Below are positions 6,342-31,921 of a stretch of DNA of 32,000 nt, piece by piece. Position 1 is the first letter of the stretch. The number at the start of each line of letters is the position of its first letter. The translations under genes and the position numbers were made by a program. Source of the stretch: an uncultured Lachnospiraceae bacterium (lineage in GTDB: Bacteria; Bacillota; Clostridia; Lachnospirales; Lachnospiraceae). The notes under the pieces were generated by a model. That model saw only the letters and a list, made by a program, of their open reading frames with translations, made no database searches and was not told where the DNA came from. The DNA lies in contig CAMRSM010000006.1 in the NCBI GenBank assembly GCA_947053345.1, positions 83,370 to 115,369 on the forward strand, given 5' to 3'.

Positions 6342-6363
6342 TATGACTCATCCTCCTTTTTAG

Positions 6364-6791: not shown

Positions 6792-6808
6792 CGTCGCACC
6801 CTGTCGAA
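6792..6808. promoter_or_regulatory. Two Spo0A-box-like heptamers 10 nt apart, upstream of spoIIAA
   Basis: Plus strand has TGTCGAA (6802-6808, exact 0A-box consensus) and CGTCGCA (6792-6798, degenerate), with 10-nt start-to-start spacing. They lie 30-45 nt upstream of the spoIIAA ATG. Confidence 0.3.
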
Positions 6809-6846
6809 ACAAAAGAAAAGAGGTCAGCCCGCTGCTGTCCTCTTTT
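6808..6846 (-). terminator. Terminator-like hairpin after the zinc-ribbon/TPR gene
   Basis: Minus strand reads AAAAGAGGACAGC-AGCGG-GCTGACCTCTTTT followed by CTTTTGTTT. The stem is GAGG.CAGC / GCTG.CCTC with one A-A mismatch, and a T-rich tail follows. Confidence 0.5.
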
Positions 6847-6880
6847 CAAACGGTATCTTATTCTCTTTTCCTTCTGTTTC

Positions 6881-12994: not shown

Positions 12995-13327
12995 GTGTGC
13001 ATAAAAAAATCCTCCGTCACAATAAGGACGGAGGACCGTGGTACCACCTTAATTCGCAGCAAAAGCTGCCTCTTACACACTTCGCGGTTTCATCTGTCAA
13101 AGCACTTCGTTCGCAACGATCTGGCCTTGCAAATGCCGGAAAGCATTCGTCTGTAACGGGACTTCCCGTAGCACCCTACCCGGAACTTCCGCTCAGGTGC
13201 TCTGTTTGAAAGCTACCTTCCACCGTTTTTCCTGAGACAGCCTTTCAGCCCCGTGCCGTCCTCTCTGCCAGTACCCGCGGTGTACTCCTCTTTCGCGCTA
13301 CATTTTTCATGTCTGCAGATTTGATAT
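12995..13327 (-). promoter_or_regulatory. T-box leader (tRNA-sensing riboswitch) of valS
   Basis: Minus strand contains stem-I elements (GCGCGAAAGAGGAGTA, CAGAGAG) and the conserved T-box sequence AATTAAGGTGGTACCACGG (13036-13054), which overlaps the 5' side of the terminator. GGAAGGUAGC contains a candidate GUA (Val) specifier, but that assignment is tentative. Confidence 0.85.
13003..13035 (-). terminator. T-box attenuator terminator
   Basis: Stem TCCTCCGTC / GACGGAGGA (9 bp) with loop CTTATTGT, followed by seven T on the minus strand (13003-13009). Confidence 0.8.
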
Positions 13328-13333
13328 GGTACT

Positions 13334-13362
13334 ATATTAAGCAATCTTCCCTAAATTGTCAA
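13334..13362 (-). promoter_or_regulatory. Sigma-A promoter of the valS T-box leader
   Basis: Minus strand reads TTGACA (13357-13362), a 17-nt spacer, then TAATAT (13334-13339). Confidence 0.6.
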
Positions 13363-13729
13363 GGGGAAAATATCATCCGAACCGCATTTTCTGCACCGCG
13401 TCTTTTTTTGCTTGTGTCCGTTTTGCATTCTGCTCATAAAAGCATCGTTCTTTCCCAAAAACGGATGTAATATCCTTTTTGCGGAAACCGGCTTCCTTCC
13501 ACTTCCGGTGCGCCGGCCGTGGCAGCCCCACCATCAAATCCCGATTGTGATTTGATGATTTTTCAGGGGGAGTATAAATCATTATATTTTAATGATAAAG
13601 CATCCGCCACCCCCAGAATATGCAATCCATCGGTTTTGGGATGGATTTGATTGATCTTTCGGGAAATATTCCGGTACGGGCAGATGCCGAAAACTCTTTC
13701 GAATTGCCGAATGAAAATCAATATTTCTG

Positions 13730-13758
13730 TTGACAACTATAAAATATACTGTTAAAAT
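13730..13758 (+). promoter_or_regulatory. Sigma-A promoter of the MetRS-like gene leader
   Basis: TTGACA (13730-13735), 17-nt spacer ACTATAAAATATACTGT, then TAAAAT (13753-13758). Confidence 0.6.
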
Positions 13759-13785
13759 TATTCAAAATAAAAGAAGGATAAGCCC

Positions 13786-13878
13786 ATGATGAAACATTCA
13801 ATTTCCATAAACAAAATGAACCAGCGACAGCAGCTTATTGTCAAAATTGGCAATGGGCTTTTTGTGTTGTGTTCATAA
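13786..13878 (+). CDS. Candidate 30-aa leader peptide MMKHSISINKMNQRQQLIVKIGNGLFVLCS
   Basis: The ORF lies between the promoter and a strong terminator. GAAGGA sits 7 nt upstream of ATG-ATG. Three Met codons are present (codons 1, 2 and 11). It is too short for the supplied ORF track. Confidence 0.4.
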   Translation: MMKHSISINKMNQRQQLIVKIGNGLFVLCS

Positions 13879-13907
13879 CAGGTGTCTTATCCTGGTCCAT
13901 CTGAACC

Positions 13908-13953
13908 AAACGGCCAAAAGCTCGGTACGAGTTTCTGGCCGTTTTTATTTTTT
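13908..13953 (+). terminator. Intrinsic terminator (attenuator) between the leader ORF and the MetRS-like gene
   Basis: AAACGGCCAAAAGCTCG-GTA-CGAGTTTCTGGCCGTTT forms a 17-position stem with one A-C mismatch and one G-U pair. It is followed by TTATTTTTT. Confidence 0.7.
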
Positions 13954-14069
13954 ATAATGTTTTCATCTATTTCCGAGCGTGTGCAAAAAATGCTTTCTGC
14001 CGGATGTGCGTCAGGGTTTGCGGGAATAATTTTCAAACACACTCCAGGGATTCGGAAAGGAGGTATACT

Positions 14070-16145
14070 ATGCCGGAACAGTCCGAGCTTCCCCAGCAAA
14101 AAGGGAAGCAAGTGATAACTAAAATAAATAACAGAAAGGAACATGATAATATGATATGTAAGCGGTTAACATCAAAGGAACGCCCGACATTTCCTAAACG
14201 GGCAATCATTACGGCAGGTATGCCTTACGGAAATAAAAATTTACATTTTGGACATGTCGGCGGTATGTTTATCCATGCGGACATTTTCGCGCGGTTTTTA
14301 AGAGACCGAATCGGAAAAGACAATGTTATCTTTCTTTCCGGAACCGATTGTTATGGTTCCCCGATCATGGAAAGCTACCGCAAGCTGCAGGAAGCAGGGT
14401 ATGAGGGTACTTTGGAAGATTATGTACGTGCTAACCATGAGAACCAGAAAAAAACCCTGGAAAACTATGGTATCCGTCTTGATTTCTTTGGGGCATCGGC
14501 TCTGGGAGAAGCAGGTTTAATCCATAAAGAGGTCTCCGCGCAAGTGTTCCAAACTTTATACAAAAACGGATATATTAAGAAAATGTCCATGCCTCAGTTC
14601 TATGATGAAGAGAAAAAGATGTTCTTAAACGGAAGGCAGGTTACAGGGAAATGTCCCATACCGGGATGCACTTCGGAAAAAGCATACGCCGATGAGTGTT
14701 CCTTAGGACATCAGTTTTTGCCTTCGGAACTGATCAATCCCGTCAGTAGCTTATCAAACAAAAAACCTGTCCTAAGAGATGTGGAAAACTGGTATTTCGA
14801 TTTAGAATATTGCATTCCCATAGTAAAGGAATACAATGATTTCTTACGGAAAAATACAAACACGCGCAAGTATCAGTTAGAAACCGTAGAAGAATTTTTG
14901 AAAAAGCCTTCCATCTATGTACCAAAAAAATATTTCGGCGACCTGGCAGAATTGGCAGCAAAGCTGCCCCCTCACAAATTAACCAATGAGGAAAAGAAAG
15001 CGTCTGTTGTGTTTGAATTTGAAAATCTGGATGACCGCGACAGGGCTAAAAACGTATTGGAAGCAGACGGCATTCATTATACTTCCGGAAAGACACTGGT
15101 TCCCTTCCGGCTGTCCGGCAATGTAGAATGGGGTATCCCATTCCCGGAGTGTGAAGGATTAGACGATCTCACCTTTTGGGTATGGCCGGAATCGCTATGG
15201 GCACCGATTTCCTTTACTTTAGCCTATTTGAAAGAGCATGGAAAAAAAGACAACTTATCGAGGTGGTGGTATGATGAAGAATCGAAGGTTTATCAGTTTA
15301 TCGGAGAAGATAACATTTATTTCTATGCCATCGCCCAGACAGGGTTATTTACCGGATTACAGGTTCCCAAAGGGGAAGTACCGGATATGGAGACCGTATA
15401 TTTATCCCACATCATAGCCAACCGGCATTTATTGTATATGGATACAAAAGCCAGCAGCAGCTCCGAATTAAAGCCTCCTGCGGCAGATGAATTGCTAAAT
15501 TATTACACGAAAGATCAGCTGCGGATGCATTTTATGAGCCTGGGTCTGTCTTCCAAAAGTGTAGGCTTTAAACCGCAGGTATTTATGAAAGAGGAAGACC
15601 GGGTTGGTGTCGATATGGTTCTGAAAGATGGCAATTTAATCACCAATGTGTTTAACCGTCTGATCCGAACCTGCTTCTACGCGATCCAGAATAATTGTGA
15701 CGGAAAAATCCCCGAGGGCGAGGTGGGGGAAGAAATAAAACTTATGGCAGAGAAAACGGTTCTTGATTATGAGCGTTATATGTATAACCATGAGTTCCAC
15801 CGTATCTCTTATGCTTTAGATGACTTTATCCGGGGGATAAACAAGCATTGGGTAAACAATGTAAAGATTGCAGATGCCACGAATAATGCAGAATCCAGAA
15901 AACAGCTTGTTATTGATTGCTTTTATGCCTGTAAGGTTATGGCAATCCTGGTTCATCCAATTGCGCCGGAGGGATGCGAAATGTTTCGGGAATATCTAAA
16001 TTTAGGAGAAGAATTGTGGGATTGGAACCATATATTTGAGCCGGTTTCTTTTTATATTGCGGACGTAAAGAATCATAAGCTCAAGTATCTGGAGCCGAGA
16101 GTCGATTTCTTTAAAAAGCATGATTGTCAGCTGGCGGAAATGTAG
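14070..16145 (+). CDS. Methionyl-tRNA-synthetase-like class I aaRS paralog (HIGH intact, KMSKS degenerate); alternative start at 14151
   Basis: By-eye alignment to E. coli-type MetRS runs along the catalytic and anticodon-binding domains (PYGNKNLHFGH, SGTDCYGSPI, QFYDEEKKMFLNGRQVTGKCP, PVLRDVENWYFDL, YQFIGEDNIYFY). The KMSKS position reads KASSS. AAAGGAGG lies 6 nt upstream of the ATG at 14070. ATG 14151 (MICKRL) would give a MetRS-like N-terminal length. Confidence 0.88.
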   Translation: MPEQSELPQQKGKQVITKINNRKEHDNMICKRLTSKERPTFPKRAIITAGMPYGNKNLHFGHVGGMFIHADIFARFLRDRIGKDNVIFLSGTDCYGSPIMESYRKLQEAGYEGTLEDYVRANHENQKKTLENYGIRLDFFGASALGEAGLIHKEVSAQVFQTLYKNGYIKKMSMPQFYDEEKKMFLNGRQVTGKCPIPGCTSEKAYADECSLGHQFLPSELINPVSSLSNKKPVLRDVENWYFDLEYCIPIVKEYNDFLRKNTNTRKYQLETVEEFLKKPSIYVPKKYFGDLAELAAKLPPHKLTNEEKKASVVFEFENLDDRDRAKNVLEADGIHYTSGKTLVPFRLSGNVEWGIPFPECEGLDDLTFWVWPESLWAPISFTLAYLKEHGKKDNLSRWWYDEESKVYQFIGEDNIYFYAIAQTGLFTGLQVPKGEVPDMETVYLSHIIANRHLLYMDTKASSSSELKPPAADELLNYYTKDQLRMHFMSLGLSSKSVGFKPQVFMKEEDRVGVDMVLKDGNLITNVFNRLIRTCFYAIQNNCDGKIPEGEVGEEIKLMAEKTVLDYERYMYNHEFHRISYALDDFIRGINKHWVNNVKIADATNNAESRKQLVIDCFYACKVMAILVHPIAPEGCEMFREYLNLGEELWDWNHIFEPVSFYIADVKNHKLKYLEPRVDFFKKHDCQLAEM

Positions 16146-16168
16146 GCAAAAAAGGGGGCGTGTTGCAA

Positions 16169-16208
16169 GCGGGCCGGGCCGGATTTTCCGGTTCTGCCCG
16201 CTGTTTGT
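16169..16208 (+). terminator. Possible terminator after the MetRS-like gene
   Basis: GCGGGC-CGGGCCGGATTTTCCGGTTCT-GCCCGC with inner stem CCGGA/TCCGG, followed by TGTTTGT. The T-tract is weak. Confidence 0.35.
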
Positions 16209-16603
16209 ATCGTATACTTTTTCTTCCCGCAGGCCAAGATCTGATGCAATCCCTGTATTTTGTGAAAGCTTCCCTTTCAGGCAATATACGAATGATCGGT
16301 CAAAAAGCAAACCCTCCCCTTCCAGACGGATCCGGGATTGATCCCTATTGAACAGCACCGCAAAAAATCATCCGTATGTTGCTGAAAAAAGTATGATAAT
16401 ACATGAAATCAATTTCCTGTTCAAGCCATCCCGCCTTAAAATGCCATCCATATTCATGTACAGGCATAGGAAAACCCCGTTTTCTGATTTTCTACAACCT
16501 TTCGCGGGAACACCGACATCCTTATCTCCCCAAAGCCTATTTGGTATCCCCATGTGCGCAGCTTCCCAGGCAAAGCTTTCTTGATTAAAAATCCCCCATC
16601 CCA

Positions 16604-17767
16604 TCACCACGAAATCCCATGCTCCCCGGCGATCTTCCCCACCAGATCCGCATACGCGCTGTTCCCCTCCGCGATCTGGGAGAGCTCCTCCCGGCACATC
16701 GCAAGCTGCTCATTGTTAAATTCCAGCCGCTCCCGGATCTTCTGCCTGCGGATGTTCAGATGGTGGCGCACTTCCACCATCTCCTTCTCGTCAAGCAAAG
16801 CCTCCGCCTGATAGAGCCAGATCTCCGCGTCCTTGACCTCCTCTTCCAAAAGCGCGTCCATCAGCTCCCGGTTGTAATGCTCCAAAAGCTCCGTGCTTTT
16901 TTTATAGCGCCGCTCCTCATCCTTCGTATGCACATATTTCTCCCAGACTGCCGTCAGTTCCCGGTAGCTTTCCACCTGATATTTCTCGTAAGCATAATCC
17001 AGCGCGTTCGTGCAGTTCACCAGCTTAATCTTGACTTTATTTGTCAGCTGGATCACCCGGTTTAACTTGTAATCCGACTCATGCAGCACCCTGCCGCAGC
17101 GCCCTGCCGCAGCCGTGATATACGCCACGGTTCCCGCCGCAAGGGCAAGCACCAGAAGCATTGGAAGGAGCATGTCCGTCCCGGTGATCATATTCATCGC
17201 CAAAAGCGTCAGGAACAAAAATACGACCAAAAAACCTGCCCCGAAAGCCAGGTTCCTCAAAAAAATCTTCTTGTCCGCCGCGGATTCCTTTTCGTACTCG
17301 ATGACCGCGCGCTCCCCGTCCAGCTGCCTTAAATCCGAATGGATCATCTCGCGGTACTGCTCCTGCTCATAAATATTTTTCAGCGCGTCCGGTATTTCCC
17401 GCTCATAACGCTCCATCGCGCGGTACTGCTGCACCGGTACGCGGTCACTGCTGTTTTGGTATTTCACACGCTCCTTTGTCAGGTTGATGATGTTGCGCGC
17501 CGCGTCATTTAAATTCTGGCGGGCGGCAGGATCCATGCGCTCAATCTTCTGCATATCCGTAAGGTAGGAGGTCACCGCCTCGTACTCTCTCTGCGAGATG
17601 CCGGCCTGCCGTCCGAGCTCTTCCATCTGCTCACAGACCACCCCGACGATCTGTGCCGCCTCCTCCCTGCTAAGCCCTTTTTTACTGCGCTTTAACTGGC
17701 GCAGCGCCTCCTTCGCATTAAGAGCCTGCTCTTCCTGCTGCTGTTTTCTTTTTCGCCTTCTCATCAC
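16604..17767 (-). CDS. Hypothetical coiled-coil membrane protein with a central two-TM hairpin (gene 4 of the operon)
   Basis: 387 aa with a basic N-terminus (MMRRRKRKQQQ). Two hydrophobic helices are FGAGFLVVFLFLTLLAMNMI and LLPMLLVLALAAGTVAYITAAA, flanked by charged helical regions. RBS AGGAGG lies 5 nt upstream of the ATG. Confidence 0.75.
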   Translation of the reverse strand: MMRRRKRKQQQEEQALNAKEALRQLKRSKKGLSREEAAQIVGVVCEQMEELGRQAGISQREYEAVTSYLTDMQKIERMDPAARQNLNDAARNIINLTKERVKYQNSSDRVPVQQYRAMERYEREIPDALKNIYEQEQYREMIHSDLRQLDGERAVIEYEKESAADKKIFLRNLAFGAGFLVVFLFLTLLAMNMITGTDMLLPMLLVLALAAGTVAYITAAAGRCGRVLHESDYKLNRVIQLTNKVKIKLVNCTNALDYAYEKYQVESYRELTAVWEKYVHTKDEERRYKKSTELLEHYNRELMDALLEEEVKDAEIWLYQAEALLDEKEMVEVRHHLNIRRQKIRERLEFNNEQLAMCREELSQIAEGNSAYADLVGKIAGEHGISW

Positions 17768-17909
17768 AGCCTCCTATTTTGAGTCCCGCTGACTTCCCTG
17801 CCCGGCACCCCTACCGTGGAAGGGCTTTCCTTCGCCCTGCCCCTGAACCCTCTTTTGGTGCCGTCACGGGATTTTGCTGTTTTACGCGCCGTGCTAAAAT
17901 CCACATGTC

Positions 17910-18746
17910 TTACCCCGCCACCTTCCGGTACTTCTCCTTCAAACGCTCCAAAAGCGCGTCCATGCACTGATAATATTCCGCGATCCGCCCTTCCTCATGC
18001 AGCTTTTTCAGCCGTTCAAGCTCTTGAAATTCCCCCGTCTGTTCCGCGGCATTCCTCGCGGCATAAACCTCCTGCGCCACCTGTGCCGTCACCTCGCTGC
18101 GGGGCATCAGGGCTTTCAATTCCTGATCCATCCGCTCCTTCTGCCCGGAGAGCGTAAGTGCTATAAAATACTGCCGCAGTGTATCGTCAGCGCCGTTGCG
18201 CTCGTACGCATCCCGGAAATATTCCACCGCCTGGCTGATATTCCCGGCATGCATCTTCACCACACCAACGTTGTGCAAAAGGTCACCAAAGACATCGCCC
18301 GGAAGCTCCGCCAATCCCCCGGAAAGTAAGATCTCCTGGTACATCGCACCGGCCTCGCGCTCCCTGCCTTCCTCCCAGAGCTTGTCCGCCTTCCATTTTT
18401 TTCTCTCCAAAGGGCTCTTCGCATAAAACGCGTCGTAATCCTTCAAAAACGCTTTGATCTCCTGCGCGTCATAATAATCCGCACTGCAAAAACACGCGAC
18501 CATCACATCCTTCGCACCCGCGCGCGCATCGACAAGATGGCGCAGGTACTCCGCACGCTCGCCAAGCCCGAGCTCCTGACCGATGAAACGGATAAACTCC
18601 TCGGAATAAAGCTCCTCCTGAATCTCAAAGGCATTGTGGTAGAGGACATGACAAAGCTCCTCAATGCTCGAAACCCGGTCGCCGGTCGCCGCAAAAACAT
18701 AAGGCCGCCCTGCCTCCCTCCCCGCACAAAGTATCACCCTTCCCAT
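17910..18746 (-). CDS. Hypothetical helical (TPR-like) protein (gene 3 of the operon)
   Basis: Start was chosen at MGRVILCAG (ATG 18744-18746), 31 nt after the upstream stop. The longer track ORF overlaps the preceding gene. Helical repeat-like segments include AGAMYQEILLSGG and ISQAVEYFRDAYERNG. No family is recognised. Confidence 0.7.
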   Translation of the reverse strand: MGRVILCAGREAGRPYVFAATGDRVSSIEELCHVLYHNAFEIQEELYSEEFIRFIGQELGLGERAEYLRHLVDARAGAKDVMVACFCSADYYDAQEIKAFLKDYDAFYAKSPLERKKWKADKLWEEGREREAGAMYQEILLSGGLAELPGDVFGDLLHNVGVVKMHAGNISQAVEYFRDAYERNGADDTLRQYFIALTLSGQKERMDQELKALMPRSEVTAQVAQEVYAARNAAEQTGEFQELERLKKLHEEGRIAEYYQCMDALLERLKEKYRKVAG

Positions 18747-18777
18747 GTCTTTCCCCTGCCTTTCCGTATCATTTCCG

Positions 18778-20031
18778 TTACAATATCTGTTCCCAGATGC
18801 GGTGCGTCGTCCCTGCCCTGCCAAAACCGCTATCCCGAAGCTGCACCACCGGCGTGTCCCTGTCCACATAAAAAAGCCTGAGCTCCAAACGTACCGTTTT
18901 ATTTTCACGCTGCATCAGATGGTCAAGGATCATGACCTCATGCAAAGGTTCACGCCGCATGACATGGTCAACCAAAAATTCCACCTCGCTCGTATCATCA
19001 AGAACCAAGCGCAGCGACCGCTTCACCGTGCGGTAATCGCTCCCCGCCTCGGAGAGCAGGAAATACTGTTCCTTCGCATCATGGTACGCCTTGACCATAA
19101 TGTCCTCTCGCGTCATATTCTCCCCGAGAAATAAGCAGTCCTGCCCCTCAATGTGCATATGCGCCGCATAACAGGCTCCCCGCGCAAAGAGATTCTGCCC
19201 GTAAAATACTCTTCTGCCATCGCATAGTTTCTGCAGTGCCCCCATCACCCAGCCATCCAAGAAACCGGAACCCGTCACAAAAACCGAGGTAACCGGCTGG
19301 TTCGCAAGCTGCTGCTGCACCATATTGTAAAACCAGTATGCCCGGCGTTCCGCTTCCTCCCTGCATATCCCGCCGCCAAAATATTCTTCCGTCAGATCCC
19401 CATGTTTTGACATGACCGAAAGCGGCTCACGTTTTCTCGAAAAATACACGCGGTCATAATAAAAATATTCATCACCACACTCAAACAGAATGGTATCATT
19501 TTTCCAGAGTTCCTGCCGCATATTGACAATGTAGCGCATAAAGCATTCGGTGTGCGACAAGAGCAAAACCCTCTCCCTGCCGACACCCAGCCGCGCCAAA
19601 ATGTCCGTGAGCACACCACCCGCCGCAAGTGCCCCCTCCGGAAGCGTAACCGCGAGCATGGTGACGGCACTGCCACCCTGCTGCCCCATCAGGGCAAGGA
19701 TCCTCCTCAAATATTCCTCCATCAGAAATTCCGCGCGGTACGTCTCCCCTCCCAACGAGAGCTCCTCCCCGGAGAGCAGCCGCCTTAAAAGCCCGTACGC
19801 GCCAAGTGCCTCCCCCCTTGCAACAACGCGCGCCGCCTCCTTCCCGTAGAGCCATTCCCCGTCCGCAGTGCGCCTTGCAAGCACGACCGGCATCGAAAGT
19901 TCCTGCCCGTCCCTGTCGCAGCACACCGGTTCCGGTTCATTTTTCCCGGCATTGTAGCGGCTGATCAGTGCTGACTCCCAGCCCAGGTCCAACCCGTAAC
20001 AAAACACCTCTTCCAACTCTGTCTTCTCCAT
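18778..20031 (-). CDS. Divergent Hsp70/actin-fold (ASKHA-like) protein with degenerate nucleotide-binding motifs (gene 2 of the operon)
   Basis: Order and spacing of YGLDLGWES (compare DnaK IGIDLGTTNS), AVTLPEG (ITVPAYF), VLLLSHTECFMRY (LRIINEPTAAALAY), ILFECGDEYFYYD (in place of LVFDLGGGTFD) and VFVTGSGFLDGWV (VLLVGGSTRIP). A C-terminal beta-rich domain follows. Confidence 0.8.
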   Translation of the reverse strand: MEKTELEEVFCYGLDLGWESALISRYNAGKNEPEPVCCDRDGQELSMPVVLARRTADGEWLYGKEAARVVARGEALGAYGLLRRLLSGEELSLGGETYRAEFLMEEYLRRILALMGQQGGSAVTMLAVTLPEGALAAGGVLTDILARLGVGRERVLLLSHTECFMRYIVNMRQELWKNDTILFECGDEYFYYDRVYFSRKREPLSVMSKHGDLTEEYFGGGICREEAERRAYWFYNMVQQQLANQPVTSVFVTGSGFLDGWVMGALQKLCDGRRVFYGQNLFARGACYAAHMHIEGQDCLFLGENMTREDIMVKAYHDAKEQYFLLSEAGSDYRTVKRSLRLVLDDTSEVEFLVDHVMRREPLHEVMILDHLMQRENKTVRLELRLFYVDRDTPVVQLRDSGFGRAGTTHRIWEQIL

Positions 20032-20049
20032 TTCTTCCGTCCTGCTGCC

Positions 20050-23000
20050 TTACCTGCGCCCGTTGCGGATCCGGAACAGATGATCCGCCTCGTAATCCGT
20101 CCGGATATAATTTTCAAGCAGCTTCATCACAGCCTCGTCATCCTGCATCTGGCGCGCCGCAAGAATCAGGTTCAGTATATCGTAACGGCTTTTCCCGTCG
20201 TGCACCACATCGTCCGCCGACACTGCCGCCGTGCTCTCCGTGATCACCGTCTGCCCGTCCGCCTCCTCCGCTATGTAATACTGCATACTTTCCTCCCGGA
20301 ACAAAACAAAACCCGCAGTAAATATTCCATGACAGATATTTTTCATCTCGCGCTCCGAAAACTGCTCCTGATCCCCAATGCGGTAATGCAGCACGACCCG
20401 GTGCGACGGATCCGTGTGATATTCCACAAAAGTCTTGTCGTACAACTCCTCCGGCAGCTGCACAAAATCCTCAAACCGCCGGAAAAACGGGAGCAGGATG
20501 CCTTTTTTTAAGATGCCGGAAAGCTTGTACTCAAGAAATTTTTTCTGCCGTTCCGAAAGCCCCTCCTCCTGCGCATAATGTTTTAAAAGGGCCAGCGTGC
20601 AGATGTCATTTTCCTCCAGTGAGACTTCCCGCTCCATCAGCTCGAAGACCTCCGGTGAAATCATCCGGTCATTCAGCAGGAATTTATATGCATAGTAATT
20701 TAAGAATGCCCGGATCAATTTCCGGTTTGTGCCGTAGCGGTAATAACTCATAAATACGCCCTGCGCGTTCCCGGTACAGCTCTCGGAAAACAAGATCTGC
20801 CCCAGCAGGCTCTCTTCCAGGCTTTCCGTATCAAGTTCTTCCGCGTGCGCCGTCTTCCAGAGCGCGTACATCCCCTCGGTCGAACCGTGATAAAATCGGC
20901 ACAGGTAAGAAAGCAATTCCTTGTCACAGCGCCCGCACTCAAAAACATAATATGCCAGAAACAGCAAAAACGGATCCGCCTCCGGCTGCTCTGCCGCCTC
21001 GAGGCAGCGCAGTGCCAGCTTATTCAGCCACTTTACCTCAATCTCCTCCGTGCCGAAACATTGCAGGGCTTCCCTCGCGCGCCCGTCAAAACCGCGCATA
21101 ATAAAAAAATGAATGATGCGCGCCCGCTCCTTTTTTGTAAATTTTTCAAGCCGGATCTTCCGCAGGTAATGCTCAAACAGATCCCCTTCATAATTTTCGT
21201 AATAATACTCCATCAAAAAGCGGACGCAGGATTCCCGTTCTTCCTCGGATACCGCTGCATTTTCCGCCAGAAGCCTGCTCAGTTCTTCCGGCTGGCTGCC
21301 GTATTTTTGGTATTTGTTCTCCTCCTCTTTCAGATGCAGCAAAAGCGGCAGCTGTGTACAGCCGTCATCATAGCATGCCTGCAGGTTCTGCTCCTGAAAA
21401 ACAAGCGGTTCCACGGTTACATGGACATCGCCCGAACGGCTGCTCTTTAAATTGACCGCCGGATAGCAGGCTCCCTCCCCATCGACCAAAAAGACCTCCG
21501 CATCCTCGGTGTAGAGCATGATCACTGCCTCCCCGCGCACGACCGGCACATACGAGGGTTCCTCCTGCCCCGGATGGAACACTGCCACACGCGCAAATCT
21601 GCCCTGCTTTACCGAGAGCTTATGCGCGAACGCAACTTTCGGCAGGCAGGCGAGTGCCTCCTTCGGCATACCGTCCCGGTATACCTCGTTATAGATGAGC
21701 GCAAGGGAATCATTCACCGCCCCCTTCGCGATCTGCTCCCCCGCAAACGCCTCCATACCCTGCCGGTATTTCGGGTACAGTGCCGCATGCTCCGACTTAT
21801 GGCGGATCAGATCCGCATACAGCATCGCCTTTTTCCGGTCACTCAATTCGCAGCGGTAGGAAAAATATAGGAAGATGTTTGGATGGATCGGCTCCTTCTC
21901 CTCTTCCCCGCGGCAATACATATAATATTCCGGAAGCTGTGCGATTTTTAACTGGCGTGTGACCGCCCGGTGAAACCATATGTAATCGCGCGCTTCCCTG
22001 CGCCCGCTCCGTATGATCAGCGCGCACACCGCGCCAAGCAGCTCATCGTCCGGCCTGTTATGATAACAGCGCCCGAGCACCTGATACAAAAGCGGCCTAA
22101 TCCCCTTCTCCCGCTGGGCCAGATATACCACCCGGCGCGCCAGCTCCGCGTCCACACAGCCGTTGGATAGCGCCAGCTTTAACACATGCAGTTCAAATCC
22201 TCCAAGTTCTTTTAGCAGCGAGGCATCTTTGCGCAGGATACGCACCGCTTCCGCGAGCAGAAGCACATGATAGCCGTACTCCGCAGTAAATTCCCGTATC
22301 GCAAAAAACCTGTGGGCATTGTCCCTGTACTCCCCGTCAAGCAGGATAAGGCAGCGGAAAAGTTCGGGATTTTCAGGATTTTCACGGTACAATCCACGGA
22401 TTTTCTCCACGGCGGTCTTCTCGGACATCCGCTCCTTCTTCTGTATCGCCTGAAGGTAATAGAATGTACCGAGCAGTCCGGCATCCCCGGCAAATTCCTT
22501 CTCCCCAAGCAGCGAAATCCCCTCCTTCACAGCAGCATCCTTGCCTGCAAGCTGCCAGAAATATAGCTGGCAGAGCTTTCCCGCGTATCCGTCCCTCTGC
22601 GTCCCCTCCGCTCCGCGCAGGCGTAAAAGCGGCTCCTTTGCCTGTTCCGCGCAATGTTTTGCGTTCCCGTCCGCGCAATAATAGGCAAGGAATATCCGGA
22701 ACAGCTCACAGACCGCCCTCTTCCCCGCCTGCCTCTGCCGCCGCTGTTCCGCCCTGCGGTGCGGAACCACACATGTCAGCCGCGCGGCAAGTTCCTTTTT
22801 CGGAGTCAGCACACGGATCTTCGTTTCCCTTTTTCCCGCCGGGACATCCTGTACACGGACGATGAAATCAACCACGAGCCGGTCGTCCACAAAATCCCCC
22901 GCCGAAAAAGACGTTCTTGAGAGCTGGATGAAACCGGCATCGCATGCGATCTCGCCCTCCACATAACCCCAGCCGCTCTTGCATACGACAAGCTGATCCT

Positions 23001-23751
23001 GAAAATTATAGCCGCCCGCCTCATACGAAAACTCCGTTTTTTCAAGCCGCAGGTCAACCGCCGCCTTTTTTCCTGTCGCGATCAAAAACTCCTCCACCGC
23101 CTGCCCCTTACGCCCCGTCAAGGCCAGGACCCGGTGCAAAAGTTCATAGCGCTTATCATGGTAAAAAATCACGCGCGCAAAATCCCTGCCAAAAAATAAA
23201 GCTTCCGCCATGTCCGGATCTGCCTTTGCCAGACTTGCAAACTGAAACAGGTCGCGGACACTCTCCTCCCCTGCCGCAAGCGCCGGATAGTGAACCTGCA
23301 CCTCGTATGGCAGATTCTCTTCCCCCGCATCCGTCACAAAAACCAGCTTCCCCTCATAGCGGTCACCTGCACCCGCATGTTCCGCATGGAAAACAAAGGG
23401 AATCACGAACTCCTCCCCCACAAACTGTTCCTTCGGCAAAGCAAACAGCAGGCTGTCCGGAAAGATCACACCCTTCATCCTGCGACCCGCGTCATTCGTC
23501 ACGCGGATACTTCCCTCATACGCCCGCCCCGCCTCCGTGTGGATCAGCAGTTTCTCCGGCTCAATGCACAGCCTCGGCATCTGGTATTCAAACTTTTCTT
23601 TCGCTAACTGCCCGATTTTCTCTTTCAACCGATACACTCCCCGATCTTTCGTTTTCAGGCTTCCCCCTCTTTTCCTGTCCCGCTGCCGCGGCAGGATTTC
23701 TGCCTGTAAATATCCACTGTCTAGTATAACGTAATCATAGTCCAAAATCAA
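20050..23751 (-). CDS. Giant (about 1233 aa) hypothetical protein: two N-terminal beta-sandwich-like modules plus a long helical-repeat body (gene 1 of the operon)
   Basis: Uninterrupted 3.7-kb ORF with coding-like composition. The track start is TTG at 23749-23751 behind AGGAAG (8-nt spacing). The first in-frame ATG is codon 58 (MPRLCIEPEKL) and lacks a good RBS. No catalytic motif is recognised. Confidence 0.85.
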   Translation of the reverse strand: MILDYDYVILDSGYLQAEILPRQRDRKRGGSLKTKDRGVYRLKEKIGQLAKEKFEYQMPRLCIEPEKLLIHTEAGRAYEGSIRVTNDAGRRMKGVIFPDSLLFALPKEQFVGEEFVIPFVFHAEHAGAGDRYEGKLVFVTDAGEENLPYEVQVHYPALAAGEESVRDLFQFASLAKADPDMAEALFFGRDFARVIFYHDKRYELLHRVLALTGRKGQAVEEFLIATGKKAAVDLRLEKTEFSYEAGGYNFQDQLVVCKSGWGYVEGEIACDAGFIQLSRTSFSAGDFVDDRLVVDFIVRVQDVPAGKRETKIRVLTPKKELAARLTCVVPHRRAEQRRQRQAGKRAVCELFRIFLAYYCADGNAKHCAEQAKEPLLRLRGAEGTQRDGYAGKLCQLYFWQLAGKDAAVKEGISLLGEKEFAGDAGLLGTFYYLQAIQKKERMSEKTAVEKIRGLYRENPENPELFRCLILLDGEYRDNAHRFFAIREFTAEYGYHVLLLAEAVRILRKDASLLKELGGFELHVLKLALSNGCVDAELARRVVYLAQREKGIRPLLYQVLGRCYHNRPDDELLGAVCALIIRSGRREARDYIWFHRAVTRQLKIAQLPEYYMYCRGEEEKEPIHPNIFLYFSYRCELSDRKKAMLYADLIRHKSEHAALYPKYRQGMEAFAGEQIAKGAVNDSLALIYNEVYRDGMPKEALACLPKVAFAHKLSVKQGRFARVAVFHPGQEEPSYVPVVRGEAVIMLYTEDAEVFLVDGEGACYPAVNLKSSRSGDVHVTVEPLVFQEQNLQACYDDGCTQLPLLLHLKEEENKYQKYGSQPEELSRLLAENAAVSEEERESCVRFLMEYYYENYEGDLFEHYLRKIRLEKFTKKERARIIHFFIMRGFDGRAREALQCFGTEEIEVKWLNKLALRCLEAAEQPEADPFLLFLAYYVFECGRCDKELLSYLCRFYHGSTEGMYALWKTAHAEELDTESLEESLLGQILFSESCTGNAQGVFMSYYRYGTNRKLIRAFLNYYAYKFLLNDRMISPEVFELMEREVSLEENDICTLALLKHYAQEEGLSERQKKFLEYKLSGILKKGILLPFFRRFEDFVQLPEELYDKTFVEYHTDPSHRVVLHYRIGDQEQFSEREMKNICHGIFTAGFVLFREESMQYYIAEEADGQTVITESTAAVSADDVVHDGKSRYDILNLILAARQMQDDEAVMKLLENYIRTDYEADHLFRIRNGRR

Positions 23752-23804
23752 GCCGTTTTCTTCCTGCCGCGCAAAAATACCGGGGAAAAATTGCGGCTGC
23801 CACC

Positions 23805-23833
23805 TTGAAAATCCCTGACATCCGATGTATACT
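23805..23833 (+). promoter_or_regulatory. Sigma-A-type promoter candidate for the ferredoxin/FrhB-like pair
   Basis: TTGAAA (23805-23810), a 17-nt spacer, then TATACT (23828-23833). Confidence 0.5.
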
Positions 23834-23909
23834 GTTACAGAAAAACTTTATACTATCAGGAAACGATAAGCAAACTTCATGCGCAAAATGCGCGGAAACG
23901 GGGGTCAAA

Positions 23910-24149
23910 ATGCAAACAAGTCCCAGTCAGGACAAGGAGCTGCCGGTGCTCTTCGAAAAGCGCAAAAACTGCTGCGGCTGCTCCGCCTGCTACGCGGTCT
24001 GCCCAGCCAGGGCAATCCGCATGCAGCCAAACAAGGCGGGCTTTTCCTATCCAGTCATAGATAAGCAGAAATGTATCCGCTGCTATAAATGCCTTTCGGT
24101 CTGCGCATTCAAAACAGACCAGAAGAAAAAAGGATATCTCAAATCATAG
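23910..24149 (+). CDS. Small 2x[4Fe-4S] ferredoxin-domain protein
   Basis: Two cluster motifs: CCGCSACYAVCP (CxxCxxCxxxCP) and CIRCYKCLSVC (CxxCxxCxxxC). Start was chosen at MQTSPSQ (ATG 23910). The upstream part of the track ORF overlaps the promoter. Confidence 0.75.
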   Translation: MQTSPSQDKELPVLFEKRKNCCGCSACYAVCPARAIRMQPNKAGFSYPVIDKQKCIRCYKCLSVCAFKTDQKKKGYLKS

Positions 24150-24164
24150 GGAAAAGAGGCTAAT

Positions 24165-25199
24165 ATGGATCAACCAATCGTATACGCGGTAAAACATAAA
24201 AATGTGGATGTGCGCATGGCATCCCGCTCCGGCGGGATCTTCACGGCAGTCTCCGACGCGGTTCTTGAGAAGGGCGGCACTGTCTACGGGTGCATCCTAA
24301 GAGACGGGGTAAACGCCGTCCATATCCGGGCCATTTCCAAGGAGGAGCGCGACCGTATGCACGGCTCCAAATATATCCAGAGCAACATGGGGGACACTTT
24401 CCTGCAGGTGCGGGAAGATCTCGCCGCAGGCCGCAAGGTTTTATTCTCCGGTACATCCTGCCAGGTCGCAGGTTTGAAAGCGTTTCTTGGAAAAGATTAC
24501 GGGGGGCAGCTTTTCTGCCTGGACATCCTCTGCCACGGCGTACCAAGCCCGCTCGTATGGAAAAAGTATGTGCAGTGGCAGGAGGGACACTACGGCGGGA
24601 CGTGCGTGGACGCGGATTTCCGCAACAAAAAAGATTTCGGCTGGGACGAGCATGTTGAAACGCTCACGCTCCAAAAACCCGACGGCACGACGGAAACGGT
24701 CCACAGTAAAATTTTCCGCAACTTGTTCTACTCCCACAAGATCATCCGGGAAAGCTGCTATTACTGCCCATACAAGGACATCACACACCCAAGTGACATG
24801 ACCATCGGGGATTTCTGGCGGGTTGAGAAGGCGGTGTCCGGCTTTGACGACAATATGGGGGTCTCCCTCGTCCTGGTCAATACGGAACACGCAAAAGATA
24901 TGTTCGATACCGTGAAGAAAAACCTGGAGTTTTTCCCCTGCCGCATCGAGGACAGCATGCAGACCCCGCTGAAAAAACCTTTCCGGCGGCCGGAGGGGCG
25001 CGACGAATTCTGGCGGGATTTCCGGGAACAGCCGTTTGACTTCATCGCTAATAAATACGGGCACTACAGCCGGGAAAACGAACAGCGCCTCTTACGCATC
25101 GCAAAAGAGCACGCCGCCGCACCCAAAAAGCATTTTATGGGCGGATTCTTTGCAGGTCTGAAAAAGCAATTCGGGTATTCGGGGAATCGGCAGAAATAA
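24165..25199 (+). CDS. Coenzyme F420 hydrogenase/dehydrogenase beta-subunit-like (FrhB/FdhB family) protein
   Basis: Typical N-terminal block VYAVKHKN...ASRSGGIFTAVSDAVLEKGGTVYGC and C-terminal-domain block VLFSGTSCQVAGLKAFLGKDYGGQLFCLDILCHGVPSP. RBS AAGAGG lies 5 nt upstream of the ATG. Confidence 0.85.
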   Translation: MDQPIVYAVKHKNVDVRMASRSGGIFTAVSDAVLEKGGTVYGCILRDGVNAVHIRAISKEERDRMHGSKYIQSNMGDTFLQVREDLAAGRKVLFSGTSCQVAGLKAFLGKDYGGQLFCLDILCHGVPSPLVWKKYVQWQEGHYGGTCVDADFRNKKDFGWDEHVETLTLQKPDGTTETVHSKIFRNLFYSHKIIRESCYYCPYKDITHPSDMTIGDFWRVEKAVSGFDDNMGVSLVLVNTEHAKDMFDTVKKNLEFFPCRIEDSMQTPLKKPFRRPEGRDEFWRDFREQPFDFIANKYGHYSRENEQRLLRIAKEHAAAPKKHFMGGFFAGLKKQFGYSGNRQK

Positions 25200-25575: not shown

Positions 25576-26862
25576 ATGATTCAGGCATACAATCATTTAT
25601 TAACTGAATATTCCTCGAATTTTTCGGCGCGCACACGTTCCGTACACAAGCCGAATGAATTAAAAGCGGTATACAGCCGGATCTTAAACATGAACCGGCA
25701 TTCCGCATATTATAAACTTGACCTCTCGAGTGAGAAGCAGCTTTTTACCCTTGCACTCAAGGACTCCTCCCTCGCGCTCGCGGATACGTTAAAAGAGCTC
25801 GGGCACGCCTTTGAGCGTCCGAGCGTGATCAATTCCGCGCATTCTTCCGATCCGGAAAGTATTTCCGCATCTCTTGTTGATGCGGAGCACACCTCGTTCC
25901 GTGAGCCGGTTTCTGTCCGCGTGAAGTCTTTGGCTACCCCTCAGGTAAATACCGGCCTCAGGGTTCTCTCCGAGGGGGAGGGACCGACCCCGGCAGCATA
26001 CCGTTTCCGCATCCAGACCGGGGAGGACAGCTATGAATTTTCCTACAATGTCAGCACGTCCTCGTCAAACCGGGAGCTGATGCACAAGCTTACAAATTTT
26101 ATCAACCGTTCGGATATCCATGTCCTCGCAAAGGTGGAGGACGACGCGGACAGCCGCACCTCCCGCATCGTGCTTACCTCGGAGGAAACCGGTCTCCCAA
26201 AAGGTCAGACAACGGCGTTCTCCATCGCGGACTCCGCGTCCGGCGGCGGGCTCGTTCCGGGGCTTGTCAGTTATTTTGGCCTCGACCATATCACACAGAA
26301 ACCAACCAACGCGAAATTTTTGCTTGACGGCAGGGAAAAGACGAGCATGAGCAACACCGTCGTCCTCAACCGCGACCTCTCGCTCACTTTCCAAAAAAAG
26401 ACCAGGCGCGAAGTGACCGTCAGTCCGGAGACCGCCGGGGAGCAGGCGATCGGGGAACTTGCAAATTTCCTGAAAAGTTATAACGCACTGTTGAATCTTT
26501 CCCGCAACGGGCTGCCCGGCAACCGCCGCTCCGCCCGCCTGCAAAACGACTTAACACGCATCCTTTCGACCGATCCGGAGGAGTTGAGCCGCTCCGGCAT
26601 CCGGCGCAATGAGGACTTCACGCTCTCCATCGACAGCCAGACGATCAAGAAACCGGAAACGATGCAGCATTTAAAGACACTTTTTGAAGAACCGGACGGC
26701 CTGTTTGCGAAACTCTCCCACAAAATGTCGGATATCTCGCTCAACCCGGTGGATTATGTTGATAAAGTGATCGTTACCTACCCGAACACCGCGAAACCCG
26801 GTTTTACGAATCCGTACCTGACCTCAATCTACAGCGGTATGATGTTCAGTTCCTACTGCTAA
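25576..26862 (+). CDS. Hypothetical 428-aa protein, no signal peptide or recognised motif
   Basis: ORF with GGAGG 6 nt upstream of the ATG. Composition is Ser/Thr/Leu-rich and coding-like. Its stop codon abuts the protease gene. Confidence 0.75.
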   Translation: MIQAYNHLLTEYSSNFSARTRSVHKPNELKAVYSRILNMNRHSAYYKLDLSSEKQLFTLALKDSSLALADTLKELGHAFERPSVINSAHSSDPESISASLVDAEHTSFREPVSVRVKSLATPQVNTGLRVLSEGEGPTPAAYRFRIQTGEDSYEFSYNVSTSSSNRELMHKLTNFINRSDIHVLAKVEDDADSRTSRIVLTSEETGLPKGQTTAFSIADSASGGGLVPGLVSYFGLDHITQKPTNAKFLLDGREKTSMSNTVVLNRDLSLTFQKKTRREVTVSPETAGEQAIGELANFLKSYNALLNLSRNGLPGNRRSARLQNDLTRILSTDPEELSRSGIRRNEDFTLSIDSQTIKKPETMQHLKTLFEEPDGLFAKLSHKMSDISLNPVDYVDKVIVTYPNTAKPGFTNPYLTSIYSGMMFSSYC

Positions 26863-26905
26863 GATGCATCCACTTGCGGACACATCTTCCCGAAAGGCGG
26901 CATTT

Positions 26906-31093: not shown

Positions 31094-31921
31094 TCAGCGC
31101 ACCGCCACAAACTCCCCAAATTCATCCAGATAGTATACTTTCCCCGCATCCTCCGTAAAATAAATATTTCCCGCCAGTGTCCCGTTATAAAACACATTCA
31201 GGCAATGGCATTCCTCCCCGTAAACAACGGTCTTCCAATTATCAAGCATCAGGCTGCACTCGTCAAGTGGTGCCGGCAGGCCGAGCGAAGTGTAGGAAAA
31301 CTGTTTCAACAGTTCTGCCGCCGCATCCGCAGTCATCGCATCGGATAACGTATCCTCCTTATCCGGCTGTTCCGTGTGCTCCAAAAGCCCGTCAAAATCC
31401 CTCTTTTTTCCATTCTCATAGTAATACAGTTCCCCGTCATCCCTGCGGACAAGCACATCATAACTCTGCGCCTTCCCCTCATAAGACACGTCATATCGGT
31501 AATATCTCTCACCGCCCGACACAAAATCAGAATCGGAGAGCGTAAACCGATACCCCACCTCCCAGAATACATCGGCAAGAATCTCATCCGCCTCCGCGGT
31601 GTCGATTCCCTCTGACGGCGGTACCGTCGCCTTCGGTGTCGGCGAGACAGCCTCCGTCGGATCCGGTTCCCTGGTCGGATCCGGAACATCGGTCGGTGTC
31701 ATAACCGGCGGCTCAGTCGGGGCATCCGTAGGTTCTATCGACCCGGTCGGATCCGGAACATCGGTCGGGCTTCCGGTCACACCGTCCGCCCCCGGTGTCA
31801 CCCCGCCCGGCTGTACCTGCTGTGTCGGAACCGGATTTTCCGGTTCATCCCCATCCTTCCGGAAATACAGGATTGCCAACACTATGACCGTGACCACCAA
31901 AAGCACAAGGAAAATATTCAT
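31094..31921 (-). CDS. Membrane-anchored hypothetical protein with a Pro/Thr/Asp-rich linker; may start beyond the window
   Basis: TM helix IFLVLLVVTVIVLAILYF, then a PT-rich low-complexity linker (PTDVPDPTGSIEPTDAPTEPPVMTPTDVPDPTREPDPTE), then a globular C-terminal domain. The frame stays open upstream of ATG 31921 to the window edge (Gly/Arg-rich), so the true start is uncertain. Confidence 0.7.
   Translation of the reverse strand: MNIFLVLLVVTVIVLAILYFRKDGDEPENPVPTQQVQPGGVTPGADGVTGSPTDVPDPTGSIEPTDAPTEPPVMTPTDVPDPTREPDPTEAVSPTPKATVPPSEGIDTAEADEILADVFWEVGYRFTLSDSDFVSGGERYYRYDVSYEGKAQSYDVLVRRDDGELYYYENGKKRDFDGLLEHTEQPDKEDTLSDAMTADAAAELLKQFSYTSLGLPAPLDECSLMLDNWKTVVYGEECHCLNVFYNGTLAGNIYFTEDAGKVYYLDEFGEFVAVR
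31673..31768 (-). repeat. 24-nt perfect direct repeat inside the PT-rich linker coding region
   Basis: GGTCGGATCCGGAACATCGGTCGG occurs at 31673-31696 and again at 31745-31768, a 72-nt (24-codon) offset. It encodes the repeated PTDVPDPT unit. A degenerate third copy (GTCGGATCCGG) lies at 31656-31666. Confidence 0.6.

Follow-up and report, generated by a model that had tools for sequence, protein, structure and literature searches.

The stretch of DNA analysed here, referred to as the window, is 32,000 nucleotides (nt) of contig CAMRSM010000006.1 (assembly GCA_947053345.1) from an uncultured Lachnospiraceae bacterium. It contains four minus-strand genes running in one direction, which encode a giant protein, an Hsp70-like protein, a tetratricopeptide repeat (TPR) protein and a membrane protein, with intergenic distances of 18, 31 and 142–145 nt. 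These genes constitute a real, conserved and previously uncharacterised module, best placed among the atypical Hsp70 assemblies. The analysis consisted of gene calls, profile searches, fold predictions and a comparison of 80 related loci. An earlier examination of the window by a model that was given only the letters and a list of open reading frames (hereafter the sequence-only reading) had already singled out the four genes as one set.

Gene layout and translation starts

The four open reading frames were listed as follows.

20050–23751, minus strand: giant protein, 1233 amino acids (aa) if started at TTG
18778–20031, minus strand: Hsp70-like protein, 417 aa
17910–18908, minus strand: TPR protein, 278 aa counted from the ATG at 18746
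16604–17767, minus strand: membrane protein, 387 aa if started at GTG

Two of these starts were subsequently corrected. For the giant, the TTG at 23628 is the most likely start and yields a protein of 1192 aa; the TTG at 23751 would add 41 residues. The downstream start is preferred because a GGGGAG ribosome-binding site lies 8 nt 5′ of it, the Pfam match of the giant begins at this very residue, the homologues have an N-terminus of the form MKEKIxQ, and the public gene calls for an identical giant give 1192 aa, whereas the TTG at 23751 falls within a −35-like hexamer, at its first base (TTGATT-17-TATACT). The membrane protein is called in the public records with 386 aa from the ATG at 17764, and plausible ribosome-binding sites are found 5′ of all four genes. 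With the starts used by the sequence-only reading, its description of four co-directional genes separated by gaps of 18, 31 and 142 nt was borne out.

On the upstream side, a 280-nt region lies between the cluster and a ferredoxin/FrhB-like gene pair that is transcribed divergently.

23629–23907, minus strand: upstream intergenic region, with a sigma-70-like promoter candidate (TTGATT-17-TATACT) at 23751–23723 and the GGGGAG ribosome-binding site of the giant

On the downstream side, the cluster is convergent with a low-GC gene encoding a MetRS-like protein. A terminator scan of positions 13000–24300 returned 12 terminator-like sites versus 13.4 expected in shuffled sequence, those within genes being weak, and found no strong terminator inside the cluster, in agreement with the earlier claim that an internal terminator is lacking.

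The identical four proteins occur in a Lachnospiraceae metagenome-assembled genome (MAG), where each of them is labelled "hypothetical protein". The earlier description of the set as "unassignable" was too strong, as the giant and the Hsp70-like protein are already catalogued in Pfam, under DUF5717 and DUF5716, respectively. Literature searches on DUF5716, DUF5717, their PF accessions and Hsp70/TPR in Lachnospiraceae found no study of these genes, and a 2014 paper on Lachnospiraceae phylogenomics mentions only generic TPR clusters.

Conservation and genomic context of the cluster

The synteny scan used one genome per species and covered the 80 loci; all loci with a genus named in the record belong to Lachnospiraceae, three of the genera having been checked in the taxonomy. 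About 70 of the 80 species genomes show this same order of genes. The TPR gene directly follows the Hsp70-like gene in 78 of the 80 loci, the giant directly precedes the Hsp70-like gene in 72 of 80 (65 of the 69 where at least 3.8 kb of upstream sequence is present), and the membrane gene follows in 51 of the 64 loci with enough downstream sequence. Ranked by linkage, the Hsp70-like and TPR genes are thus the tightest pair, followed by the giant and then the membrane anchor. The median gaps across the loci are 20, 17.5 and 43.5 nt, and protein identity ranges from 22 to 77%. All four proteins diverge fast relative to valS, showing 27–40% identity where valS shows 71–75%. The four genes are one conserved module, far beyond what chance would give, and occupy a core-genome position. 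The sequence-only reading had treated the set as one module and had named neighbourhood conservation as a check of this; the co-occurrence across the 80 Lachnospiraceae loci, in which order and tight spacing are kept, and the fusions of the Hsp70-like and TPR proteins described below answer that check positively.

The 13 loci without a membrane gene at this place are L011, L012, L015, L019, L020, L025, L048, L059, L060, L066, L070, L079 and L080; several of these have valS as the next gene. In L007 and in L062/L063 (Clostridium sp. CAG:590 and a related MAG), no DUF5717 giant adjoins the other three genes of the cluster, which are kept; the upstream gene encodes a BspA-type leucine-rich repeat surface protein of 1856 aa in L062 and a DUF4015 glycosyl-hydrolase-like protein in L007.

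The recurrent neighbours of the cluster are housekeeping genes, namely valS (31 loci), a class I/II aminotransferase, purA/purB/purF/purC, infC-rplT, proB and rarA, all named by inspecting representative sequences, with three confirmed by look-up of one contig. Beyond the four genes themselves, no neighbour is consistently conserved in the 80 loci. Functional links to valS, the spoIIA-like operon, the S8 peptidase and the FliD-like and FrhB-like genes of the window were considered and rejected, their proximity not being conserved across the loci.

No plasmid matches to the cluster were found. Five matches named "Bacteriophage sp." are UNVERIFIED faecal scaffolds, of which two were examined. 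Both of these, GenBank MT835486.1 (L081) and MT835719.1 (L082), are human-faecal records labelled "UNVERIFIED: Bacteriophage sp." that carry the whole four-gene cluster, accompanied in MT835486.1 by rarA and valS; the two records are pieces of bacterial chromosome rather than phages. A mobile-element origin of the cluster was therefore rejected, there being no plasmid matches and the phage-labelled matches being bacterial DNA.

The Hsp70-like protein

The second gene of the cluster was divided as follows.

18778–20031, minus strand: lidless degenerate Hsp70 homologue, 417 aa, DUF5716_C (Pfam, AlphaFold2, Foldseek)
19144–20004, minus strand: actin-fold nucleotide-binding domain (NBD), residues 10–296, with motifs collinear with DnaK
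18781–19143, minus strand: linker and β-subdomain of the substrate-binding domain (SBD-β), residues 297–417, with a CLFL hydrophobic linker, eight strands and an RDxGFG motif

The protein matches Pfam DUF5716_C over residues 126–415 with an E-value of 4e-74 (249.8 bits, cut-off 34.7), and its AlphaFold2 (AF2) model is of high confidence (pLDDT 89, pTM 0.86). When this model was searched with Foldseek, the best 50 matches were all Hsp70s, including DnaK, BiP, Hsc70, Ssb, mortalin, Hsp110 and the atypical Ssz1, with E-values down to 4e-18 at identities of 11–15%, and nearly all of the alignments extended over ~500–560 columns, covering both the NBD and the SBD-β. The order and spacing of the motifs GxDLG, xLLxxL, TE, F(D/E)xxxE, TGxGF, GQNL...GA, CLFL and RDxGFG are those of DnaK, apart from the deficit in the NBD described below. 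Judged by its predicted fold, the 417-aa protein is a structural Hsp70 homologue and not a cytoskeletal protein of the actin/MreB type. Thus, the Hsp70/actin-fold motif order recognised by the sequence-only reading corresponds to an Hsp70 fold, with an SBD-β that it had not mentioned, and of its two suggestions for the assembly, cytoskeletal or chaperone-like, the second is the better one.

This structural relationship is not visible at the sequence level, at which the protein falls outside the Hsp70 family, with no Pfam HSP70 match at E ≤ 0.1 and no significant match in the PDB by either single sequence or profile. The DUF5716 family profile reached DnaK in the PDB only at E 0.19–0.29, and hhalign assigned a probability of 6% to this pairing, the alignment itself being sensible. 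The profile retrieved 1427 representatives (clusters at 50% identity) at E ≤ 1e-3 and 584 at E ≤ 1e-30.

The protein departs from a canonical Hsp70 in its catalytic residues, its lid, its sequence-level membership and its J-protein and nucleotide-exchange-factor partners. Among 75 family members, compared with a manually entered DnaK sequence, the position of DnaK K70 is occupied by L, V or I in 67 (L in the window protein), the residues common at the positions of DnaK T11/T12 do not include Thr, and the GGGT loop (DnaK G196–G198/T199) is replaced in the DUF5716 family by (D/N/G)(E/D)(E/D)G. The NBD is ~76 residues short in the segment that leads from the second phosphate motif to the adenosine motif and that corresponds to the subdomain IIB region of DnaK. 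The RRVFxGQNL and DxGFG motifs, in turn, are invariant or nearly so in the same 75 members. The protein stops at residue 417 within a β strand (RIWEQIL), immediately after the eighth strand of the SBD; the family C-terminus reads RIWEQ(I/x)(L/I) and is likewise a predicted β strand, and the model contains neither a helical lid nor an acidic tail, the family length being ~410–445 aa. Neither the four proteins nor the products of the recurrent neighbours contain a DnaJ or GrpE domain.

The lost lysine (K71 in Hsc70) is essential for ATP hydrolysis by Hsp70. Because this residue is missing, the Hsp70-like protein would act as a non-hydrolysing, or very slow, clamp.

One family member, P0188 (691 aa), carries after its Hsp70-like domains an acidic low-complexity tail of ~270 residues, rich in Asp, Glu and Ser, in place of the TPR fusion described in the next section.

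The TPR protein and natural fusions

17910–18746, minus strand: TPR partner, 278 aa, with an N-terminal domain of ~100 residues, a central TPR region and a helical C-terminus
18162–18434, minus strand: central TPR region, residues ~105–195 (family profile)

A profile built from 29 members of the TPR-protein family matched consensus/designed TPRs in the PDB at E 3e-19 over residues ~105–195, and the TPRs of the Hsp70/Hsp90 co-chaperones Tom70, CHIP, Sti1 and Tah1 weakly (E 0.005–0.013). Pfam TPR_2 was matched in 14 of the 29 members, the window protein alone remaining below the Pfam cut-offs. A PADLOC search of the TPR region gave one sub-threshold match to DrmC (E 0.005), which is read as TPR-repeat similarity. 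The sequence-only reading had called the whole protein helical and TPR-like, which holds for residues ~105–195, while residues 1 to ~100 make up a separate conserved domain. In 76 homologues, the N-terminus of this domain is almost invariant at M1, G2, K/R3, a hydrophobic residue at 4, I/L5, C7 (75 of 76), G9 and P15, giving the motif MG(K/R)(L/V)I(L)C, which reads MGKLILC. A J-domain was looked for in the TPR protein and in the membrane protein and rejected, since neither contains an HPD motif or a DnaJ match.

In 7 of the best 150 family representatives, the Hsp70-like and TPR proteins are fused into one chain of ~700 aa, with linkers of 11–18 residues. The TPR profile aligned by hhalign to residues 434–707 of one such fusion, P0082, with an E-value of 4e-59, and the fusion, which arose in at least one lineage, is found on many independent contigs and assemblies. 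On a contig of 102 kb, the fusion gene lies between a DUF5717 giant and a homologue of the membrane protein (E 1e-84), adjoined by purA, an aminotransferase and valS. These natural fusions are the strongest evidence for a physical link between the Hsp70-like and TPR proteins, which they suggest at the level of sequence.

The giant protein

The regions of the first gene, as delimited on the AF2 model, are the following.

20050–23628, minus strand: giant, 1192 aa, DUF5717_N and DUF5717 (Pfam, public gene calls, AF2)
22765–23571, minus strand: two β-sandwiches, possibly ASH/MSP-like, with a helical insert, residues 20–288 (AF2, Foldseek), comprising β-sandwich 1 (residues 20–124), the helical insert (residues 127–184) and β-sandwich 2 (residues 193–288), each placed by AF2
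21631–22752, minus strand: TPR-like α-solenoid 1, residues 293–666 (AF2, Foldseek)
21406–21627, minus strand: β module 3, residues 668–741 (AF2, conservation)
20437–21393, minus strand: α-solenoid 2, residues 746–1064 (AF2, Foldseek)
20077–20433, minus strand: β module 4 (1066–1136) and C-terminal helices (1148–1184), residues 1066–1184 (AF2)

The giant matches Pfam DUF5717_N (1e-206, 688.8 bits) and DUF5717 (8e-94, 314.7 bits), both with a gathering cut-off of 25, and has no meaningful match in NCBIfam or PADLOC and no significant one in the PDB by single sequence or profile. The AF2 model, computed from 19 homologues, has a pLDDT of 86. The two β-sandwich modules and the long helical body that the sequence-only reading had recognised are present in this model, together with two further β modules that it had not seen. 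In the Foldseek search, the N-terminal sandwiches matched ciliary central-pair ASH proteins, the SPD-2 domain of CEP192 and 2qsv at E 2e-6 to 4e-4, these ASH/MSP fold matches having low TM-scores and coming from a search with the whole model rather than with separate domains. The solenoids matched Ctr9, Ski3, IFT-A and Prp6 at E 1e-5 to 4e-4, also with low TM-scores.

No enzyme fold is among the 50 listed Foldseek matches of the giant. In 62 homologues, the positions conserved at 90% or more are mostly hydrophobic, aromatic or glycine, and no catalytic constellation can be recognised among the few charged or polar residues conserved to this degree. Conservation is highest in the helical insert that separates the two sandwiches. 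Since only repeat, β-sandwich and solenoid folds were matched and no catalytic constellation is conserved, we read the giant, on the basis of its model, as a non-enzymatic scaffold. An enzyme such as an (α/α)-toroid plus β-sandwich glycosidase or lyase was considered as well, and was rejected on the same two grounds. For the set as a whole, the sequence-only reading could name no catalytic or transport signature, and none has emerged from Pfam, NCBIfam, PADLOC, Foldseek or the conservation analysis; NCBIfam and PADLOC returned no meaningful match for any of the four.

The membrane protein

16604–17764, minus strand: membrane anchor, 386 aa (hydropathy, conserved motifs, public gene call)
17084–17251, minus strand: transmembrane hairpin, residues ~173–228 (hydropathy)

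The membrane protein contains a single hydrophobic span of ~55 residues with basic flanks on both sides, which is read as two helices joined by a very short turn. The two-helix transmembrane hairpin proposed by the sequence-only reading is therefore retained, in the form of this one span. Because of the basic flanks on each side (the positive-inside rule), the long, helical and charged arms of the protein are probably both cytoplasmic. No hydrophobic span, signal peptide or transmembrane segment was found in the other three proteins. Two motifs, NRAIxLxNKVKIKYVN and KEMVEVRHxLNxRRQKLRER, are conserved on the C-terminal side of the hairpin. The protein has no relative in Pfam, NCBIfam or the PDB; matches of its profile to VMA21 and keratin in the PDB were rejected, as they reflect transmembrane and coiled-coil composition.

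Neighbouring genes and expression

Upstream of the giant, SigA-like promoter matches at 10 or more of 12 positions are found in 45% of the regions from 65 loci versus 9% of shuffled sequences, and the consensus sequences of SigE, SigK, SigF and SigG show no enrichment in these regions. This difference suggests, as a weak indication from promoter sequence, that the cluster is expressed vegetatively.

Beyond valS, as viewed from the cluster, the window contains a spoIIA-like operon.

4969–6990, minus strand: genes for a spoIIAA-like STAS protein, a spoIIAB-like HATPase_c_2 protein and a SigF-like sigma factor (profile matches)

The SigF-like sigma factor scores 306 bits against a cut-off of 311 and passes the SigB/F/G subfamily model. 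These genes are preceded by one for a zinc-ribbon/TPR protein and, in the window, by one for a FapA-like protein (6881–8302 and 8617–10020). The block of valS, the zinc-ribbon/TPR protein, STAS protein, kinase and sigma factor is syntenic in ~10 related loci. A T-box leader of valS lies at 13021–13307 on the minus strand (91.2 bits versus an Rfam gathering score of 93, E 2.8e-20), with its terminator hairpin at 13037–13008; an Rfam scan of the window at the gathering thresholds returned nothing. As valS has a T-box leader of its own, it forms a separate transcription unit.

Between the cluster and valS, a low-GC island (13000–16400, GC fraction 0.42–0.44 versus ~0.54 elsewhere) carries the 713-aa MetRS-like gene at 14004–16145 on the plus strand. 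This gene scores 246 bits against an equivalog cut-off of 587, is without a counterpart throughout the 80 related loci and has no T-box leader detected upstream; it may be a horizontally acquired MetRS paralogue. The ferredoxin/FrhB-like pair on the other side of the cluster (23908–25199, plus strand) consists of a small 4Fe–4S ferredoxin reading frame followed by an FrhB/FdhB-like gene, and is not among the recurrent neighbours in the related loci. Further upstream, on the strand opposite to the cluster, positions 25576–29158 (plus strand) encode a weakly FliD-like protein of 428 aa and an S8 subtilase with Big_2 domains. These two genes are kept only in the four closest relatives (L001–L004), together with pepF and a 275-aa reading frame without a family (31094–31921).

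Proposed function and alternative explanations

We tentatively favour a scaffold complex tethered to the membrane, in which the Hsp70-like and TPR proteins serve as a non-hydrolysing adaptor pair. The order and conservation of the genes, the folds, the lost motifs, the fusion and the features of membrane topology were obtained directly; from there, we infer that the four proteins join in one complex, which of them binds which, and that ATP is not hydrolysed. The complex would be a dedicated cytoplasmic assembly tethered to the inner face of the membrane, specific to Lachnospiraceae and encoded in the core genome. Within it, the lidless Hsp70 homologue and the adjacent TPR protein would form a stable clamp or adaptor, by analogy with Ssz1 in the ribosome-associated complex (RAC), and this pair would bind, position or assemble the 1192-aa scaffold, while the hairpin protein, with its putative coiled coils, would hold the assembly at the membrane. 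A membrane-tethered complex is most likely, rather than an enzyme pathway. The dedicated machine imagined by the sequence-only reading, with a scaffold, an ATPase-fold module, an adaptor and a membrane anchor, matches the predicted folds.

The way in which the pair is held together may be a pseudo-substrate interaction, in which the N-terminus of the TPR protein (MGKLILC) would occupy or extend the SBD-β of the Hsp70-like protein. The peptide NRLLLTG is a classical DnaK-binding sequence. The idea is put forward because the TPR motif, MG(K/R)LILCxG, resembles this peptide and lies 11–18 residues from the SBD strand in the fusions.

Several observations weigh against the membrane-tethered complex as proposed. 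The membrane gene is missing in 13 of 64 loci, and the giant is not adjacent in L007 and L062/L063, where other genes take its place; therefore, the four parts are not strictly inseparable. The acidic residues of the ATPase site are mostly kept in the 75 family members, with D15 in 67 and D/E184 in 67 (corresponding to DnaK D8 and D194), and the glycines of the adenosine motif are invariant, so far as sequence can tell leaving room for nucleotide binding and even slow hydrolysis by the Hsp70-like protein. As to the pseudo-substrate idea, which draws on a peptide resemblance and the short fusion linkers, the otherwise invariant Cys7 is replaced in two of the fusion proteins. Finally, no evidence points to a particular cellular process that the complex would serve.

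An alternative would be an ATP-driven chaperone, in which the Hsp70-like protein and the TPR protein as its co-chaperone fold or assemble the giant, or clients associated with the membrane, through nucleotide-controlled cycles of substrate binding, in the style of HscA/HscB–IscU. The full Hsp70 architecture with its hydrophobic interdomain linker and SBD-β, the conserved acids and adenosine-motif glycines just mentioned, the tight linkage to the gene of a giant multi-domain potential client and the weak likeness of the TPR to Tom70, CHIP, Sti1 and Tah1 are all compatible with such a role. However, the catalytic lysine is absent family-wide, both phosphate loops are without their threonines and glycines, and subdomain IIB, which holds the nucleotide and the exchange-factor site, is largely missing. 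There is also no helical lid and no acidic EEVD-type tail that a TPR clamp could bind, and neither the cluster nor its recurrent neighbours include a gene of the J-domain or GrpE kind, all of which makes an ATP-driven chaperone unlikely. A machine for sporulation or envelope morphogenesis, made in the sporulating cell and active at the forespore or septal membrane, is a quite improbable explanation. It would agree with the spoIIA-like operon a few genes away in the window and in ~10 related loci, with a GH18+LysM gene near the cluster in the window, and with the many host genera that form spores, and a link to sporulation or the cell envelope had been suggested in the sequence-only reading. 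That suggestion is not upheld: valS, preceded by a T-box leader, stands between the cluster and the spoIIA-like operon, other housekeeping genes are the neighbours at most loci, and the promoter matches enriched upstream are SigA-like, with no enrichment for the sporulation sigma factors. Moreover, Catonella morbi has the complete cluster, and a Butyrivibrio MAG has no fewer than the first three genes, its contig ending inside the fourth; both are described as non-spore-forming.

An anti-phage or conflict system, with the degenerate Hsp70-like NBD/SBD and the helical repeats serving as a sensor like CnuD of Type III CoCoNuT, seems very improbable. CoCoNuT systems do combine degenerate Hsp70-like NBD/SBD units, HEAT-like repeats and coiled coils (PMC11090510), and the four proteins evolve fast compared with valS. 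However, PADLOC gave no relevant match beyond the sub-threshold DrmC hit, the cluster encodes no McrB GTPase, McrC/DUF2357, nuclease or other effector domain, and it is a single-copy element in a core-genome position, with stable synteny among housekeeping genes, apparently vertical divergence and no occurrence on plasmids or genuine phages. A chance juxtaposition of unrelated or mis-called genes, for which the missing functional annotation is the only argument, is effectively refuted by the conservation and fusion data: all four genes have hundreds of homologues, both modelled proteins were predicted confidently, order and spacing are kept down to ~25% identity, and two of the genes are naturally fused.

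The membrane-tethered complex would bear on some 7 kb of the Lachnospiraceae core genome that have no assigned function, in a family that ranks with the most abundant bacteria in the gut of humans and animals. If correct, the reading would add a new branch to the Hsp70 superfamily, without a lid, subdomain IIB or the catalytic lysine and invisible to sequence profiles, comprising at least 584 clusters at 50% identity (E ≤ 1e-30). It would also describe a permanent bond between a bacterial Hsp70-type protein and a TPR protein, a combination that is usually held to be eukaryotic, and a giant, non-enzymatic and membrane-tethered scaffold, a hint that the cells of these anaerobes are organised in ways not yet explored. 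Pfam DUF5716 and DUF5717, and two families without a Pfam entry, thereby receive a structural annotation and a hypothesis that can be tested. A bolder version, in which the giant sandwich/solenoid scaffold, of a build otherwise typical of coat, adaptor and ciliary scaffolds in eukaryotes, is assembled on the cytoplasmic membrane or released from it by the lidless pseudo-Hsp70 and TPR proteins as a new cell-biological machine, this machine is a family-wide membrane-organising or cytoskeleton-like system of Lachnospiraceae, and the pair is the first native bacterial Hsp70–TPR partnership, is doubtful as one joint claim.

Comparison with known systems

Compared with the canonical Hsp70s DnaK, HscA and HscC, the Hsp70-like protein shares the collinear motifs GxDLG and (N/T)E, an acid at the D194 position, TGxGF in place of GGxT and the GA that ends the NBD, as well as the hydrophobic linker and an eight-stranded SBD-β with a DxG motif. 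In contrast, it has no catalytic lysine, phosphate-loop threonines, lid or C-terminal tail, most of subdomain IIB is missing, and its partner genes encode a TPR protein, a giant and a membrane protein instead of a J-protein and GrpE. E. coli HscC is an Hsp70 paralogue with an active ATPase and a lid, encoded beside the membrane-anchored coiled-coil proteins DjlB/DjlC; unlike DjlB/DjlC, the membrane protein described here contains no J-domain or HPD motif.

The pairing of a TPR protein with an Hsp70-type protein is reminiscent of Hop/Sti1, CHIP, Tom70 and Tah1. However, the Hsp70-like protein ends in a β strand and is without the EEVD tail that TPRs such as those of Hop and CHIP clamp, and the match to these TPRs indicates no specific co-chaperone relationship, because the similarity to consensus/designed TPRs is far stronger. 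The giant shares fold classes with ciliary central-pair proteins, CEP192, Ctr9, Ski3 and IFT-A, with query-normalised TM-scores of at most 0.13 and identities of 5–14%; this likeness to eukaryotic scaffolds is that of a generic fold class and gives no grounds for assuming a common ancestor or a common function. CnuD of Type III CoCoNuT also combines an Hsp70-like NBD/SBD of degenerate ATPase motifs with helical repeats and coiled-coil proteins (PMC11090510). Compared by description, the present cluster differs from CoCoNuT in having no McrB-type GTPase, DUF2357 or nuclease and in its stable core-genome context.

The closest functional analogue of the Hsp70-like protein is, by this comparison, Ssz1 in the fungal Ssz1–Zuo1 RAC, chains of which (6sr6, 5mb9 and 7x3k) are among the structural matches of the 417-aa protein. 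The analogy is one of function, with no evidence of orthology: unlike RAC, the present system is bacterial, has a TPR protein rather than a J-protein as the partner, includes a membrane anchor and a giant, and shows no ribosome signal. What the two would have in common is the design found in RAC, in which an atypical Hsp70 with a truncated SBD does not cycle as a chaperone but stays bound to its partner as a structural component, with a segment of that partner held in the SBD as a pseudo-substrate.

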